DNA of 64,000 nucleotides, taken from Clostridia bacterium. GTDB lineage: Bacteria > Bacillota > Clostridia > HGM11514. How positions within the stretch are numbered: position 1 is the stretch's first letter; every line of letters starts with the position of its first letter. The position numbers were made by a program, and so were the translations under genes. Shown piece by piece: positions 8,261 to 14,576 of this stretch. Location of the stretch: NCBI GenBank assembly GCA_045586685.1, contig JAZNAU010000038.1, positions 1-64,000 on the forward strand, in the 5' to 3' direction. The notes beneath the pieces were generated by a model that worked only from the letters and a program-made list of their open reading frames with translations, ran no database searches and had not been told where the DNA came from.

Positions 8261-10531
8261 CTATTTATTCTGTTCTCTCAATTCTACTCTTCTTATTTTA
8301 CCGCTGATGGTTTTGGGTAGCTCTTCGGTAAACTCCACAATTCTTGGGTATTTGTAGGGAGCAGTGTGAGTTTTTACATAGGTCTGGATTTCCTTCTTCA
8401 GTTCATCCGTCCCCTCTGTTCCCTTTGTCAGCACGATAGTCGCCTTCACCACCTGACCGCGGATTTCATCGGGCGCAGCGGTTACAGCACATTCCAGAAC
8501 ATAGGGAAGCTCCATAATCACACTTTCAATTTCAAAGGGTCCGATACGATAACCGGAAGACTTAATGACATCATCCACACGGCCTACATACCAGAAATAT
8601 CCGTTTTCATCCCGCCAAGCAGTATCTCCTGTGTGATACAATCCGTCATGCCAGATTTCCTCTGTCTTTTCAGGTTGGCGGTAATAACCCTTAAACAAAC
8701 CGCAGGGATTTCCCTGTTCAGTATGAACAACAATTTCCCCCGTTACACCATCTTTAACAGATTTTCCATTCTCATCCACAATATCCACCTGATACAAGGG
8801 GCTTGGACGACCCATAGAACCGGGAATGGGTGTCGTACCATAAAAGTTCCCGATGGTAAGAGTGGTTTCTGTCTGACCAAAACCTTCCATAGGGCTAAGA
8901 CCCGTTGCTTTTTTCCACTGTGCAAACACTTCAGGGTTTAACGCTTCTCCTGCAACCGTACAGTATTCCATAGAGCTTAAATCATATTTACTCAAATCTT
9001 CTTTAATAAAGAAACGATACATAGTAGGCGGTGCACAGAAGGTTGTAATCTGATATTTAGCAAACATAGGAAGAATATCATCTGCATTAAAACGATCAAA
9101 GTCATAAGTAAATATTGCCGCTTCGCTAAGCCACTGACCGTACAGTTTTCCCCACAACGCCTTTCCCCATCCAGTATCGGAAATGGTGAAATGCAAACCG
9201 TCTGGATTTACATGATGCCAATATTTTGCGGTAATATAATGACCCAAAGGATATTGGAAACTATGAGTTGCAATTTTGGGATAACCTGTAGTTCCTGAGG
9301 TAAAGAACATCAGCATATCATCCGTACCGCAAGCAGCGTCTTTGGCTCTCGGGAAGGAATCAGAACTGACCTCCACCCCTTCATCAAAATTATGCCAGCC
9401 CTCTCTGACTCCGCATGCCATAATTTTTGTTTTAAGAGTAGGACAGTTAACTTCTGCCAAATCCACTTGCTCTGCTACATCGCCGTCTCCCGTACAAACA
9501 ATGGCACTGACCCCTGCTGCTTGAAAACGGTACTCAAAATCGTGCTGAACCAGTTGGTTGGTGGCAGGGATTACGATTGCACCGATTTTATGCAACGCCA
9601 AAATGGAGAACCAGAACTGATAATGCCGTTTTAATACCAGCATGACCCTGTCTCCCCGCTTAATTCCCAAGGACTGAAAGAAATTCGCGGTTTTGGAAGA
9701 ATATCGGCTCATATCAGAGAAGGTAAAGCGGCGTTCCTCATGATTTTTAGACAGCCAAAGCATTGCCAATTTATCCGGACATTTTTCTGCCAGACGGTCA
9801 ACCGTATCATAAGCAAAATTATATGTTTCTTCATTGGTAAAAGAAATACTGTTCAGAATACCGTTTTCGTCAACAGTAGTCTGAATAAAGTCAGAGGAAA
9901 TATCATCAGGTCTTTCCTGAACCGAAACAGATTTATGTTGAATAGGTTGGGTCACAGGGTCGCTTGCTCCCCCAACAACAATCGCATAGAATTGGCAGGG
10001 TTCTCCGCCCACTGCAATCATACCGTGAGGAGTTGCACTGTTGTAATAAACCGAATCACCCGCATTTAATATTTCTATCTTTTCCCCTATCTGAATCTTC
10101 AGTGAACCAGATACCACAATATCCATTTCCTGTCCGCCGTGGGTTGAAAGCTCAATAGCTTTATCCTGTTGTTCGGGCAGAAAGGGGGCAGTTACCATAA
10201 AAGGTTCTGCCAGCTTACTTCGAAACATGGGGGCTAAGTTATTATAGACAAAACCACGCCGTCTGTGTATTGGCAATCCTTCCCCTCCTCTTGTAACGCA
10301 GTGAGAAGAAAGGGTAGGAGATTCTCCACTAACCAAATCTGTTACTTCCACTCCAAAGGCAGAGGCACATTTGAAAATAAAGGTAAAGCTAAAATCAGAT
10401 TCTCCTAATTCCTTTTTCAGGTACTCTTCTGCAGAAGTGGCAGTAATTTCTGCCATACGTTCCACACTCAGACCCAGAATTTCACGAAGCTCCTTAATTC
10501 TTGCACCAATTTCCTTAATTTTCTGTTCCAC
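8261..10531 (-). CDS. XRE-HTH/cupin regulator fused to a medium/branched-chain acyl-CoA synthetase (AMP-forming)
   Basis: Residues ~1-186 are XRE HTH + cupin (H.GQE..., DSVYYNSATPHGM). Then FTSGTTGYPK, DTGWGKALWGKLYGQW, EGFGQTE, YHTGD, GR.DD and KTISGKI of the ANL adenylation family. Confidence 0.9.
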   Translation of the reverse strand: MEQKIKEIGARIKELREILGLSVERMAEITATSAEEYLKKELGESDFSFTFIFKCASAFGVEVTDLVSGESPTLSSHCVTRGGEGLPIHRRRGFVYNNLAPMFRSKLAEPFMVTAPFLPEQQDKAIELSTHGGQEMDIVVSGSLKIQIGEKIEILNAGDSVYYNSATPHGMIAVGGEPCQFYAIVVGGASDPVTQPIQHKSVSVQERPDDISSDFIQTTVDENGILNSISFTNEETYNFAYDTVDRLAEKCPDKLAMLWLSKNHEERRFTFSDMSRYSSKTANFFQSLGIKRGDRVMLVLKRHYQFWFSILALHKIGAIVIPATNQLVQHDFEYRFQAAGVSAIVCTGDGDVAEQVDLAEVNCPTLKTKIMACGVREGWHNFDEGVEVSSDSFPRAKDAACGTDDMLMFFTSGTTGYPKIATHSFQYPLGHYITAKYWHHVNPDGLHFTISDTGWGKALWGKLYGQWLSEAAIFTYDFDRFNADDILPMFAKYQITTFCAPPTMYRFFIKEDLSKYDLSSMEYCTVAGEALNPEVFAQWKKATGLSPMEGFGQTETTLTIGNFYGTTPIPGSMGRPSPLYQVDIVDENGKSVKDGVTGEIVVHTEQGNPCGLFKGYYRQPEKTEEIWHDGLYHTGDTAWRDENGYFWYVGRVDDVIKSSGYRIGPFEIESVIMELPYVLECAVTAAPDEIRGQVVKATIVLTKGTEGTDELKKEIQTYVKTHTAPYKYPRIVEFTEELPKTISGKIRRVELREQNK

Positions 10532-10559
10532 AAAAAACGCCTCTCTTTCTTTTTTTTAA

Positions 10560-10838
10560 AATAAAAAACCGCCCCAAAGAAAAGATTCTTTGAGACGGGA
10601 ATCAACATTTGGATTTTTTCCCGCGGTACCACTCAAATTGCGTTTATAAAAAACGCCACTCACAGGCTCAAACAAGCCCCATGCCTTAACGTAGCATACT
10701 CACGAAAGGTGCCTACTCACATCTGTTTTCTGGCCTTCAGCTCAAAAGTGATAAGTCATTGGAACGCTCTGACATTGGCTTGCAGCAACCACCAACTCTC
10801 TGTGACATTTCGTCCCGACCGTCTTCGTCATCGCTTTT
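10560..10838 (-). promoter_or_regulatory. T-box riboswitch, predicted specifier AUC (Ile)
   Basis: Minus strand shows a GA motif (GCGAUGA..UGAGC), AGAGAG and GCUGCAA distal loops, specifier AUC-A at 10750-10752, T-box AAUUUGAGUGGUACCGCG (10622-10639) and a terminator with U-tract. Confidence 0.9.
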
Positions 10839-10848
10839 ATTGAGTTTA

Positions 10849-10877
10849 ATTATACCACTGTAAAAATCATTTGTCAA
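10849..10877 (-). promoter_or_regulatory. Sigma-A promoter of the T-box leader
   Basis: TTGACA-17-TATAAT on the minus strand. Confidence 0.85.
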
Positions 10878-10898: not shown

Positions 10899-12341
10899 CT
10901 ATCGTCTTCTCATAACACTCTCCAACGCGTACCGAAGAGCATCAATGGAATGATTGTCCCGGTCAGGATATCCTGAAATGACCTGTCCTTTGGTATCCTG
11001 CTCATATTCATATTCCAAAAACTCCTTTGCAGCAGCAGGACATCTCTTAGGGTCAATAATAATTTCATTTAATGACGAAAGCCACTTCATAGAAAATTCC
11101 ACACTCCCGGGGCCCTTTCTGGCTCTTCGCATCAAGAAACCCATTTCACGAAAATGGTTAATGGATTTGGGTCCTTCTCCCCCGCTGTCTGCCACAATTT
11201 TATCCCCATTTTTCACACCATGTTCCCGAAGTAATGATGCGATTGTTTCGTTTGTCAGCTTGTTTCCGCTGATTTCATCAAACACATACACCCTCCTTTC
11301 ATTTGCCTGGAAATGTACCGCTATATAACGAAAAGGATCAGGATACCAGCCCCAGTCGATTCCTCTGTAAATACGGTCAAAATTATTGATTTCATCATTG
11401 GTAATGTCTCGTAAGATGACATTGTCAAATACCGCACCCCCTGTGCCGTTTGCCTCTCCCAAATATTCATGAGCATACCGTTCCGGGCGAGAATTTTTCA
11501 AATGCTCTGCATCGTCTAAAAACTTCTGACCAAGCCAACTGGGCGGAACCGTAAGGAAACTGCTTTTATGGACCAGCATTCCTTCCTTTGGCTGTTTGAC
11601 ATACAAATTCACCCACGCCTTGGAGGATTGAGGAGGATTAAAGCTTTTAAAAACAGTAAACTCCCCTTCTCCTCGCAACACAGACTGTTCAATGTTTCGG
11701 ATTTCCTCCTCCGATTCAAATTGATCCAGTTCCTCAAACCACAGAACGCCGATAAAACCAAAGGCGGGCTTAATGGATTTCAGTTTTCCGGGGTCGTCTG
11801 CTCCGCGGAAATAAATTTTTTGCCCTGTTTTCTTGTACTCAATTTCCATAGGATTTGATTTACAGTTAAATTCCGATTCTAATCCCAATGTACCGATTGC
11901 CCATTTATATTGGGCATATACACTGTCACGTAAGGTATCCTTTACCCGTCTGCAGGCAAGAATATGAAGTTTGGGATTATTAAGCATTAACTCTAAAGTT
12001 ACAAGGCTGATAAACGTTGATTTACAACTTCCGCGTCCTCCGTGAAGAAGATATTCACTGTGCTTCTTCTCTGTAATATCACGGTATAGGTCAACAAATG
12101 AGGAGGCAAGAAGATGTGCGGGCAACCGAAAATTTTCTCTGTTCCCTTTTTGTTCAATAAAATCAGAAACCTCTTTTATAACCGCGGGATTCCCCTTTTC
12201 AACCGCCTGTTCAAACAACTTTATGGCAAGGAGCATGGTGTTGTTCCTGTCCTTTTTTGGAATTTTATATTGTGCAAATAATTCTTCCTGGTCACAGGGG
12301 CTTGTGGCCAGTTTGGATAAGTATTTTTGAAATTGATTCAT
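10899..12341 (-). CDS. PBSX-family phage terminase large subunit with a TerS-like N-terminal extension; orphan (no other phage genes nearby)
   Basis: Walker A HGGRGSCKS, IYFRGADDPGKLKS, Walker B LWFEE, motif III SFNPP, RNase H-like nuclease GIDWGWYPDP and D.DNHSIDALRYA. ATG at 12341 follows GAGGGAG. Confidence 0.92.
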   Translation of the reverse strand: MNQFQKYLSKLATSPCDQEELFAQYKIPKKDRNNTMLLAIKLFEQAVEKGNPAVIKEVSDFIEQKGNRENFRLPAHLLASSFVDLYRDITEKKHSEYLLHGGRGSCKSTFISLVTLELMLNNPKLHILACRRVKDTLRDSVYAQYKWAIGTLGLESEFNCKSNPMEIEYKKTGQKIYFRGADDPGKLKSIKPAFGFIGVLWFEELDQFESEEEIRNIEQSVLRGEGEFTVFKSFNPPQSSKAWVNLYVKQPKEGMLVHKSSFLTVPPSWLGQKFLDDAEHLKNSRPERYAHEYLGEANGTGGAVFDNVILRDITNDEINNFDRIYRGIDWGWYPDPFRYIAVHFQANERRVYVFDEISGNKLTNETIASLLREHGVKNGDKIVADSGGEGPKSINHFREMGFLMRRARKGPGSVEFSMKWLSSLNEIIIDPKRCPAAAKEFLEYEYEQDTKGQVISGYPDRDNHSIDALRYALESVMRRR

Positions 12342-12364
12342 CTGATTTTCACTCCCTCTGATTC

Positions 12365-12408
12365 TATTATAACACAAAAAAGTTGCCATGAATTGTAAAG
12401 ATGGCAAC
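12365..12408 (-). promoter_or_regulatory. Terminase promoter: extended -10 plus palindromic operator candidate
   Basis: TGTTATAAT extended -10 on the minus strand and inverted repeat GTTGCCAT-N11-ATGGCAAC (12382-12408) over the -35 region. Confidence 0.55.
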
Positions 12409-12410
12409 AT

Positions 12411-12444
12411 AAAAATCCCTCATTCTCCACGAACAAGGGATTTT
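12411..12444 (-). terminator. Terminator after typA-DUF3343, insulating the terminase gene
   Basis: AAAATCCCT..AGGGATTTT hairpin with a U-run on the minus strand. Confidence 0.65.
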
Positions 12445-12449
12445 CCTAT

Positions 12450-12695
12450 CTATATTTTTTGATATCTTCCGTCTTTGTATAAAAAGCGGTCACGAACGGG
12501 AATTTTATTTGTTTCGGAAAGGTTACAGACTCTACTGTAATCACGCTCCGACACAATCAAACTGTAACTGCACCCCTTTTGGCTCAAATCCTGCGGGGTA
12601 TGCACTACAGACAGAGAAATCCCCTGTCTTTGACACAGCTTTTGCAGACGTTGGGCAGTTGTCACCGAAGACACAACCAAATAATATTTGGGCAT
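12450..12695 (-). CDS. DUF3343-family small protein
   Basis: SVT.A....K....GI...V..TP..LS..GCSYSL pattern; RBS GGGGAG. Confidence 0.75.
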   Translation of the reverse strand: MPKYYLVVSSVTTAQRLQKLCQRQGISLSVVHTPQDLSQKGCSYSLIVSERDYSRVCNLSETNKIPVRDRFLYKDGRYQKI

Positions 12696-12755
12696 ACTTC
12701 TCTCCCCTTTTGTAATTTTGCGCAAAAATGCGTTCATTACATTATATGCAAGGGG

Positions 12756-14576
12756 TTATTTTTTGTTTCGAGCCTTTCCTCTCAAATCATTGTTCAGAAT
12801 TCGTTTTCTCATACGCAAATGTTCAGGCGTTATTTCTAACAGTTCATCATCTGCAATAAATTCCAGACATTGCTCCAATGACAAGTTTCTCGGAGGAGTC
12901 AGTTTTAATGCATCATCCGACCCTGATGCACGGGTGTTTGTCACGTGCTTTTTCTTACAAACATTGACCACCACATCATCATAACGACTGTTTTCACCGA
13001 CTACCATACCTTCGTACACTTCTACACCGGGACCAATAAACAAACTTCCTCTGTCCTGTGCATTAAACAATCCATACCCCACCGAAGTCCCTGTTTCAAA
13101 AGCGACCAAAGACCCTCTCTGTCTGCCTCCGATGTCTCCTTTATAGGGTTGATATTCTTCAAATAAACTGTTCATCACTGCTGTTCCTTTGGTTTCGGTA
13201 AGTAATTGATTTCTGAAACCAATCAGACCTCTTGATGGAATCAAAAATTCCAGACGGGTATAGCCTTGGCTGGTAGGAATCATGTTGGTCATTTCCCCTT
13301 TTCGAAGGCTGATTCCTTCCATAACCGCACCTGTAAATTCATCAGGTACGTCAATCAAAAGCCGTTCAATGGGTTCGCATAGCACTCCGTCTATTTCTCT
13401 TGTGATAACTGCGGGCTTTGATACCTGAAATTCATACCCCTGCCGACGCATATTTTCAATCAAGACAGACAAATGAAGCTCTCCTCTGCCCGACACGGTA
13501 AAGGTATCCGCAGAATCCGTCTCCTCCACTTTTAAGCTAATATTAGATTCCAATTCCTTGAACAGTCTGTCACGCAAATGACGAGAAGTCACATAAGTAC
13601 CGTCACGTCCTGCAAAGGGACTGTCGTTTACCGAAAACTGCATGGATAAAACAGGCTGGTCAATCTCCACAAAAGGCAAAGCTTCAGGCTTTGAAGGGTC
13701 GCAAAGGGTTTCCCCAATATTGATATCCGTAATACCCGAAATGGCAATCAACTCACCAACGCCCGCTTCATCAATAGCAATTCGCTTTAATCCTTCAAAA
13801 TTATATAAGGTTGAAATTTTTGCATTCTTGTTAGTACCGTCATTTCGGCAAACAGTGACCGATGCTCCTAATTTTGCAATTCCCCGTTCTACTTTTCCGA
13901 TAGCAATTCTACCTGTGTATTCATCAAAATCTATGTTTGACACCAACATCTGAAAAGGCTCGTACTTTTCTCCTTTGGGCGGTGCAATGTGATTGACAAT
14001 CAATTCAAACAAAGGCTGTAAATCCGACGCCTTTGGATTTTCGGGAGCTTCACTCGCCCAACCATCTCTAGCGGAGGTGAAAATGACAGGAGAATCAATC
14101 TGCTCATCCGTGGCATCCAAATCCAAAAATAGCTCCAGTACCTCATCCACTACCTCGTACGGGCGGGCATTGGGACGGTCTACCTTATTCACTACAATAA
14201 TAGGTTTTAAATCCAAAGCCAGCGCCTTTTTCAGCACAAATCTGGTCTGTGGCATACAGCCTTCGAAGGCATCTACCACCAGCAACACCCCATCAACCAG
14301 TTCCAGACTCCGTTCCACTTCACCACCGAAATCCGCATGACCCGGAGTGTCCACCACGTTAATTTTTATATCCTTATAAAAGAGCGAGGTATTCTTGGCA
14401 AGAATGGTAATCCCACGTTCCCGTTCCAAATCGTTTGAATCCATGACCCGTTCCGCTACCTGCTCATTGTCACGAAAGGTTCCGCTCTGCTTGAGCATAG
14501 CATCAACCAGTGTAGTTTTACCGTGGTCAACATGGGCAATAATCGCTATATTTCTAATATTATTCTGTGCTACCAT
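12756..14576 (-). CDS. typA: Translational GTPase TypA/BipA
   Basis: [45 protein letters not shown] and the BipA C-terminal domain. Confidence 0.97.

Follow-up and report, generated by a model that had tools for sequence, protein, structure and literature searches.

For a long time gene transfer agents (GTAs) were believed to occur almost only in Alphaproteobacteria. In 2026, particle sequencing was reported to show that GTA-like packaging is frequent among Ruminococcaceae, Oscillospiraceae and Christensenellaceae of the gut; multi-operon GTA-like elements and packaging of random DNA are described there for gut Clostridia, and among these elements only FpGTA of Faecalibacterium, encoded in two operons 125 kb apart, is tied to genes (PMC12946183). 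A preprint adds two-cluster GTA candidates in murine gut bacteria (10.64898/2026.07.08.737213). Here we analyzed a stretch of 64,000 nucleotides (the window) from a Clostridia bacterium of the lineage HGM11514 (assembly GCA_045586685.1, contig JAZNAU010000038.1, positions 1 to 64,000). The window lies on contig C38, which belongs to a metagenome-assembled genome (G000; 1.55 Mb, 56 contigs, 97% complete) and carries a gene for a phage-type large terminase, terL. We think it probable that the product of terL serves as the packaging motor (ATPase and headful nuclease) of a phage-derived particle system which the host has kept and which is split into separate, co-regulated units. The units in G000 are the promoter and terL at the typA locus, a head-tail-lysis operon by pheA on contig C50, and promoter-preceded genes for DnaD-like proteins on contigs C30 and C34. 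These four intact units on four contigs carry one shared promoter-like motif.

FpGTA resembles this system in its gut Clostridia host, in having phage-derived head and lysis genes distributed over more than one chromosomal operon, in its genus-wide conservation and in having no obvious DNA-binding small terminase (TerS) (PMC12946183). In the same description FpGTA is podovirus-like and keeps TerS, TerL, portal and capsid in operon I, whereas TerL stands alone here (PMC12946183). When compared by gene content and description, the present system also differs from FpGTA by its siphovirus-type tail (tape measure, Dit, Tal), by its four or more units and by their single promoter motif. FpGTA is backed by particle, proteomic and packaged-DNA evidence, while the system described here is known from its genes alone (PMC12946183). 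The second point of comparison is phage SPP1, which has a Gp6-type portal and packages by the headful (pac-type) mechanism: the C-terminal 183 residues of TerL align to the solved nuclease of its terminase G2P (2wbn) with an E-value of 6e-33, and the catalytic motifs GIDWGW, ADS and DNHSIDA are kept. SPP1 is, however, a virulent phage with adjacent genes for TerS (G1P), TerL and portal and with a defined pac site. PBSX of Bacillus subtilis, a defective element, has genes for head, tail and lysis and fills its heads with DNA of the host; it shares the Firmicute host and, by TIGR01547, the TerL family with the present system. PBSX is a contiguous cluster in which xtmA (TerS) lies beside xtmB (TerL) and which has its own repressor and sigma-like factor, whereas the present system is dispersed and a gene for TerS was not found. 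RcGTA of Rhodobacter capsulatus likewise combines a head-tail cluster with dispersed accessory loci under common control, cannot package its genes as a unit, is inherited vertically under purifying selection and has a TerS without a DNA-binding domain. In RcGTA, on the other hand, terL lies within the main cluster, and it is head spikes, tail fibres, regulators and functions in maturation and lysis that come from the dispersed loci; its ancestry is alphaproteobacterial and unrelated, and its regulator GafA is known.

The terL gene and its domains are located in the window as follows:
10899..12410, minus strand: open frame of terL, from the list of open reading frames (ORFs)
10899..12341, minus strand: terL coding sequence, PBSX-family large terminase, 480 aa plus stop codon
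12057..12341, minus strand: N-terminal extension of TerL (aa 1-95), helical, of no known family, ahead of the ATPase domain
11454..12053, minus strand: ATPase domain of TerL (aa 97-296), Pfam Terminase_3, with Walker A GGRGSCKS, Walker B WFEE and SFNP
10920..11342, minus strand: RNase H-like nuclease domain of TerL (aa 334-474), Pfam Terminase_3C

The start codon is the ATG at 12341, the one used by all homologues, which gives a protein of 480 aa with no internal stop. TerL exceeded all curated cut-offs for the PBSX family: Terminase_3 matched with 2.3e-38 (132 bits, cut-off 23), Terminase_3C with 4.2e-15 (57 bits, cut-off 27) and the NCBIfam model TIGR01547, “PBSX family phage terminase large subunit”, with 138.5 bits (cut-off 105). 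Several PHROG large-terminase families matched as well. We aligned 18 full-length homologues, drawn from three lineages, and found that the Walker A columns G101-G102-R103-G104-S105-x-K107-S108 were invariant in all 18, and so were W201-F202-E203-E204, S233-F234-N235-P236 and the nuclease residues D329, D385 and D460/N463/H464/D467. By this alignment, the catalytic residues of both the ATPase and the nuclease are intact. The preliminary description of the locus, made from the letters of the window, had read the gene as an intact 480-aa PBSX-type TerL with its ATPase and nuclease motifs, and the family scores, the 18-sequence alignment and the match to 2wbn all bear this out. The usual context of a large terminase, with a small terminase and a portal gene beside it, was not found, as the neighbors of terL are DUF3343/typA and a T-box unit. 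Since gene context is not defining for the PBSX terminase family, the family membership stands.

We searched G000 by tblastn with the proteins that neighbor terL in relatives, including portal and capsid, and found portal, capsid and tail genes on contig C50. They form a cluster of 19 tightly packed ORFs on the same strand over 12.6 kb, none of them interrupted. The cluster contains the following genes:
C50: portal of the SPP1 Gp6 type (PHROG 533, 9e-112; Pfam SPP1_portal)
C50: scaffold-like protein, listed between portal and major head protein
C50: major head protein (PHROG 422, 2e-81)
C50: head-tail adaptor, tail completion protein and tail-tube-like protein (PHROG matches including adaptor and tail completion)
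C50: short tape measure of 335 aa (PHROG)
C50: Dit, Gp37-like Tal (Pfam Sipho_Gp37) and three further tail-end (fibre-like) proteins
C50: two small holin-like proteins and an Amidase_2 endolysin (Pfam Amidase_2)

No terminase is present among the ORFs of the cluster. Conversely, terL is the sole terminase found in G000, being the only match both to the TerL protein query and to Pfam Terminase_6N; TerL_ATPase (PF03354) had no match in the genome. Each cluster protein occurs in a single copy, and all 20 genes (terL and the 19 on C50) are intact. The ORFs upstream of the cluster read by eye as dapA/dapB/asd/DAHP synthase/pheA, names which do not come from a family scan. Head, tail, packaging and lysis genes are found without adjacent integration or lysogeny functions, as in GTAs, although the DnaD-like genes with the same promoter are of replication type. 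The GC content of terL (0.422) and of the head-tail cluster (0.423) is host-like (genome 0.41).

The 19 cluster proteins match C50 only, and the two DnaD-like proteins match C30 and C34 only. None of these 21 proteins is encoded on the window contig C38, where other kinds of phage gene were not screened for. The statement of the preliminary description that the 64 kb hold no further phage genes therefore holds for the proteins of the system on the window contig and fails for the genome as a whole. With a terminase-less head-tail operon on C50, terL is not an orphan at the genome level. The genome search yielded exactly one isolated portal/capsid/tail cluster, which lacks a terminase, lies beside amino-acid biosynthesis genes and carries the same promoter-like motif as terL.

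Tyrosine recombinases in G000 comprise two Xer-sized genes, whose motifs read as XerC/D-like, and two fragments at contig ends. No recombinase adjoins any of the cassettes examined, and a search for att-like direct repeats around terL gave only repeats of chance size. A phage satellite (PICI or capsid-forming PICI) was considered and rejected: there are no flanking repeats and no recombinase at the loci, the tail and lysis set is full, and no second terminase marks a helper prophage in G000.

The link between the units is the promoter-like motif, which stands before terL as follows:
12352..12402, minus strand: promoter-like motif (~48 nt), by-eye consensus GCAAGTCATGGCAACTTTTTTGTGTTATAAT-AGAATCAGAGGG, with an extended -10 and a weak -35
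12352-12358, minus strand: ribosome-binding site (RBS) GAGGGAG of terL, overlapped by the 3’ end of the motif

Both TGTTATAAT (extended -10) and the RBS are present ahead of the terL start, in agreement with the RBS and extended -10 that the preliminary description had assigned to the gene. The extended frames 5’ of terL and of the portal gene encode the same peptide, which pointed to shared DNA. A 21-nt pattern from upstream of terL was found at 6 places in G000 when up to 3 mismatches were allowed, versus 0-1 for the reversed control. The fuller by-eye consensus reads GCAAGTCATGGCAACTTTTTT(G/A)TG(N)TATAAT-A(A/G)AA(N)TA(G/T)AGGG and includes two GCAA(G/C)T boxes 10 nt apart. We then ran a profile (nhmmer) built from 18 sites of relatives only (four sister genomes) against G000. 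It gave six matches with E-values from 3e-14 to 8e-9 (5.6e-13 at terL), the next match being at 0.029. The six sites lie before the portal gene (C50), before terL (C38), before the two DnaD-like genes (C30, C34) and at two decayed copies (C9, C33). The motif precedes the portal gene and terL, or the DnaD-like gene directly before terL, in the relatives G001, G002, G003, G005 and G006 of the same genus as well. In a second genus of the family (g3) two operons have a related ACCGCAA(G/C)TTT...TATAAT promoter.

An extended -10 together with a poor -35 and the two GCAA(G/C)T boxes suggests that the shared promoter may depend on an activator or a dedicated sigma factor. A scan for sigma-70 promoters gave nothing at the portal site. 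Reading TGGCAAC-N-TTGT as a sigma-54 promoter was rejected, as two of the four gene-linked G000 sites have AG in place of the GG and the GC is missing. The palindromic operator TTGCCAT-N11-ATGGCAA proposed earlier for terL did not hold up either: its left arm is found at the terL locus only and is imperfect in the sister species, and its right arm is part of the motif common to the other loci. As the palindrome is not conserved, the operator was discarded.

Additional sequences were noticed around the promoter. Extra motif copies, at C9:78745-78795 and C33:9976-10026 in G000 and also at the loci L120, L124 and L129, have nothing behind them but short repeat-rich remnants (SD/KS-type peptide repeats) and A-rich tails. 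They look like decayed forms of the DnaD-like gene; in G000 what is left corresponds to the repeat-rich middle of the C30-type gene. The promoter-DnaD-like cassette seems to multiply and decay. Between motif and portal start lies a leader hairpin, AAAGGGATTCG-loop-CGGGTTCCTTTTTT (L021:6975-7040, on C50 of G000), which is kept in all five leaders (G000, G002, G003, G005, G006) with variable loops and may be an attenuator or an antitermination target. A stretch of ~35 nt, CTTAAGTTTCGTTGCTCTGGGGCATAGGCTTTT, is located 5’ of the portal promoter (L021:6890-6935; also G002 L115 and G003 L117) and resembles one 5’ of the HTH-terL promoter in g3 (G008 L015; G010 L016). An Rfam search of the conserved stretch 5’ of the portal promoter returned nothing credible.

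Next, we assessed conservation and selection. The order consists of a single family with 12 genomes. An intact terL occurs in each of the six other genus genomes (93, 93, 89, 80, 78 and 61% identity), and terL was also found in all three genomes of the second genus (55-57%); the single genomes of two further genera (89 and 92% complete) gave no terL match. The portal gene is likewise intact in 6/6 other genus genomes, occurs in both g3 genomes searched and is found in one of the genomes without a terL match. Portal and terL are on different contigs in all six genus members. For terL we calculated omega from the two least saturated pairs (dN 0.036-0.037, dS 0.91-0.95): G000-G001 gave 0.039 (dN 0.036, dS 0.91), and G000-G003 gave 0.039 as well. 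For the portal gene omega was 0.080 at a dS of about 0.5. The host genes flanking terL have a dS of 0.56-0.65 and a dN of 0.0085 (typA), 0.067 (DUF3343) and 0.039 (AMP-ligase); the dN of terL thus equals that of the adjacent AMP-ligase and is lower than that of DUF3343.

Gene order was compared at both loci. The G001 contig is collinear with C38 929-13673 apart from a missing T-box/AMP-ligase unit, and G003 is collinear with the window from 12401 to 8538. The portal operon, including pheA, is collinear in G001 and G003, and in G006 a distance of 1.6 kb separates the operon from pheA, upstream of it on one contig. TerL (93/93/80), portal (92/89/75) and the host enzyme PheA (93/88/72) show parallel identities to G001/G003/G006. 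Maximum-likelihood analysis of 29 TerLs placed six genus members in one clade with 100/100 support, (G006,(G005,(G002,(G003,(G000,G001))))). These data indicate that within the genus, with G004 as an exception, terL and the portal gene are vertically inherited and under purifying selection, as far as gene order, identities and substitution rates can tell. The earlier proposal of a host-maintained gene is supported by an omega of 0.04, by the presence of terL in every other genus genome and by the collinear locus in two sister species. The order typA-DUF3343-terL holds in the closest species and not across the genus.

We also compared 80 related loci from public genomes. In relatives at 57-63% TerL identity terL-portal-scaffold-capsid-connectors-tube-Dit-Tal lie in one run, and these contiguous terL-portal loci carry their own conserved promoter. 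Upstream of them are ORFs with homologues in G000, some of which look like genes for ribosomal proteins when read by eye; 10 of 15 loci share one divergent membrane-protein gene there. No upstream ORF reads as a replication or lysogeny gene in this comparison, which was made with G000 only and not by family scan. More distant relatives (47-55% TerL identity) are ordinary phage head modules. Probing the 80 loci with the two Xer-like proteins of G000 gave no integrase match, a result of little weight given how far phage integrases have diverged from Xer. The dispersed arrangement probably arose from a contiguous ancestral cluster. In this scenario an ancestral promoter-DnaD-like-terL-portal... 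cluster would have been domesticated and then split in this genus: promoter-bounded pieces would have been duplicated or translocated, and reciprocal losses would have followed.

Two of the related loci deserve separate mention. L043, from a metagenome-assembled genome, contains terL, portal, scaffold and capsid, directly after these amidase and holin-like genes, and then host genes, with no tail genes there. This locus could represent a variant that lacks a tail, or else a further split system. In L038, L047, L050, L051 and L052 a highly conserved sequence of ~100 nt, …TTCCCTACGTTGGCATTATCCAAATCAGGTTACGGGTCGAA…CTCCCCGATATTTATTT, separates the terL promoter from a divergent transporter-like gene and looks like a riboswitch-type leader.

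The C30 and C34 genes are paralogues of 215 and 251 aa, each behind a copy of the promoter motif. Their products weakly match the PHROGs “DnaD-like helicase loader” and “replisome organizer”. An AF2 model (pLDDT 73) shows an N-terminal winged helix and a helical C-domain, and its best, weak fold matches are N-domains of plasmid initiators (E 3.5e-3); the protein atlas gave HTH_36-type leads only. The gene at the equivalent position in g3 encodes HTH_36 and DnaD_N domains and overlaps terL. The DnaD-like gene stands directly before terL in G005 and G006, with a stop/start overlap in G006, and in G004 a longer DnaD-like gene lies one gene further 5’ of terL. The proteins are candidates for a small-terminase surrogate, an activator or a replication initiator. 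The label “small terminase” was tried and could not be assigned, since the fold matches are only weak winged-helix/initiator ones. In G010, a member of g3, three TGTGGATAA repeats are found just 5’ of the promoter of the DnaD_N-HTH gene preceding terL (L016:9180-9300); they resemble DnaA boxes, a hint of an origin-like region.

The TerL extension (aa 1-95) had no Pfam match at E<=0.01. Its AF2 model is helical at aa 3-63 (mean pLDDT 65), and a fold search returned no match at E<=0.001, the best E-value being about 4-5. In relatives the same position of TerL is occupied by fused small-terminase domains (Terminase_2, 5e-16; GP3_package, 4e-8 and 2e-7).

From these parts we infer co-expression, particle assembly, non-specific packaging and, as outcome, either gene transfer or killing. 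Some factor would fire the shared promoter at all units, and proheads would assemble from the C50 products. TerL, supplied in trans, would dock on the portal and fill the heads with DNA; it could do so without a recognisable sequence-specific small terminase, because its extension sits where relatives carry fused TerS domains. Tails would then attach, and holin and amidase would release the particles. The SPP1-type portal and the nuclease point to headful packaging, and the lack of a recognisable DNA-binding small terminase suggests a low sequence specificity. With genes at four or more loci, the system could not package itself as a unit and its particles could not propagate it, a property that it would share with GTAs and PBSX. 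As far as sequence goes, the scattered GTA-like system that the preliminary description had listed among its options fits these findings, given the C50 cluster without terminase, the shared motif, the omega values and the synteny.

Several observations weigh against a host-kept, split particle system. The dS of terL (0.91-0.95) is higher than that of the flanking host genes. TerL (61%) and portal (52%) of G004 are divergent, and the G004 TerL falls outside the genus clade. Above the genus the TerL tree is a polytomy of the genus clade, g3 and two other lineages, and within the class the TerL family is patchy, being found in 22 of 399 genomes at E<=1e-100. The divergence in G004 and the patchiness in the class imply that horizontal origin or replacement occurs, as in ordinary phages. 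Homology between G000 and G002, G005 or G006 breaks off precisely at the promoter motif and, in the case of terL, at the stop codon as well; beyond these borders the flanks differ. Promoter-bounded cassettes have therefore moved during the history of the genus, and such sharp borders could also mean that the cassettes are mobile. The two tyrosine-recombinase fragments (C13:10-147 and C6:26016-26348) are located at contig ends and may represent an unassembled mobile element. The draft of 56 contigs does not fix the spacing between the loci, and the C50 cluster ends 221 nt before the contig end. The DnaD-like genes encode replication-type proteins, which are not expected under a strict definition of GTAs. 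Finally, neither a recognisable DNA-binding small terminase nor a regulator of the system was found in G000.

Four alternatives were weighed. The one that survives best, although we regard it as distinctly the less likely course, is that the particles serve killing, as in a PBSX-like, head-bearing tailocin, or altruistic lysis instead of gene transfer; TerL would still fill heads. The match of TerL to the NCBIfam PBSX-family model is consistent with it, as is the operon with its complete siphovirus-type tail, including Dit, Tal and fibre-like proteins, and its lysis genes. PBSX itself packages host DNA yet acts as a bacteriocin. However, the genes of PBSX form a single cluster that includes its regulators, whereas they are dispersed here, and the strong purifying selection on heads, portal and terminase would be needless for a pure tail-killing device.

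We consider it improbable that the units are cassettes of a still-mobile element, be it a phage, a satellite or a self-copying cassette, and that their conservation reflects selfish spread and not host benefit. This would account for the homology between species, whose limits coincide with the promoter at one end and with the stop codon at the other, for the different cassette positions in G002, G005 and G006, and for the multiple promoter-DnaD-like copies, some decayed with A-rich tails. The divergent set of G004 also includes a second DnaD/replisome-organiser-like gene upstream of terL. Set against this, flanking direct repeats are missing, no recombinase adjoins the cassettes examined, each structural gene is present in a single copy with a divergence that tracks the host enzyme, and among the three closest species, at dS 0.6-0.9, the cassettes have kept their places.

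Still less credit can be given to decaying prophage leftovers, with a terL that has no present function. The local isolation of terL, the two promoter copies that head only decayed DnaD-like remnants and the relative L043, which keeps only head and lysis genes at its locus, would be in line with decay. The omega values (0.04 for terL and 0.08 for the portal gene, at dS of about 0.9 and 0.5) largely refute it, and so do the 20 intact genes, the catalytic residues invariant in 18/18 homologues, the presence of terL and portal in every genus genome and the promoter conserved at both loci.

That TerL was co-opted for a task other than filling its own capsids, as an anti-phage decoy nuclease or another DNA translocase, is very unlikely: a lone terL with its own promoter among core genes would suit it, but the decoy and co-opted-translocase options raised earlier are made unnecessary by a cognate, terminase-less head-tail operon with the same promoter and a sister-species divergence parallel to terL, and the orthologue in relatives holds the canonical terL-portal position.

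The remaining features around terL belong to host genes outside the system:
12412..12444, minus strand: hairpin and T-run, intrinsic-terminator-like, at the end of the typA-DUF3343 unit (inverted repeat with 14-nt arms)
12450-12737, minus strand: DUF3343/Se_S_carrier gene (Pfam), host gene
12756-14576, minus strand: typA (Pfam), host gene upstream of terL
10849-10877, minus strand: consensus sigma-70 promoter of the separate downstream host unit (scan)
10588-10840, minus strand: T-box leader (91.1 bits, E 1.2e-20)
10569-10598, minus strand: terminator of the downstream host unit (scan)
8261-10531, minus strand: HTH-cupin-AMP-ligase gene (Pfam), separate host unit

The position of terL between typA-DUF3343 and a T-box leader, as first described, is confirmed by Pfam and by the T-box score. 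The default Rfam search had missed the T-box because its 91.1 bits fall just under the gathering score of 93. A terminator between the typA operon and terL had also been proposed; the hairpin with its T-run agrees with this, and the pairing of its stem is kept in the sister G001 through a two-sided change (T-A to C-G). The terminator scan tool made no call for this hairpin (12412-12444). The T-box and a perfect sigma-70 promoter control a 756-aa fusion of an XRE-type HTH, a cupin and an AMP-binding (acyl/aryl-CoA ligase-like) domain, which is an unusual T-box cargo. The T-box/AMP-ligase unit (8261-10877) is absent from the sister G001 and present in G003.

In Bartonella local over-replication feeds packaging. 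Taking all parts of the system together, we tentatively propose that this uncultured order of gut Clostridia with small genomes has a siphovirus-type GTA, kept for the lifetime of the genus as cassettes wired by one dedicated promoter, with the DnaD-like proteins as switch and with a TerL extension that lacks an HTH and replaces the small terminase, leading to sequence-independent packaging. This combined proposal is possible at best. Within it, the DnaD-like proteins would be GafA-like activators acting on the GCAA-repeat promoter, or initiators of local over-replication that feed packaging.

A literature search by phrase found no described lone or solitary terminase gene. Multi-operon GTA-like elements have been reported in gut Clostridia, so the kind of system is already known. 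New here are the solitary terL cassette, the siphovirus-type tail set, the DnaD-like members and the defined shared promoter; the list of packaged taxa in the report on FpGTA might already include this lineage (PMC12946183). Beside FpGTA, the locus represents another architecture that looks unrelated: its tail is of the siphovirus type, its terminase is separated from portal and capsid, and a sharply defined promoter motif marks out its members. Programs for prophage detection would overlook a system of this kind, since all they would encounter is a lone terminase and a structural cluster without one. With the motif as a starting point it should be possible to search for the regulator and to recognise comparable split systems in metagenome-assembled genomes, and a phage gene that looks like an “orphan” calls for a view of the entire genome.

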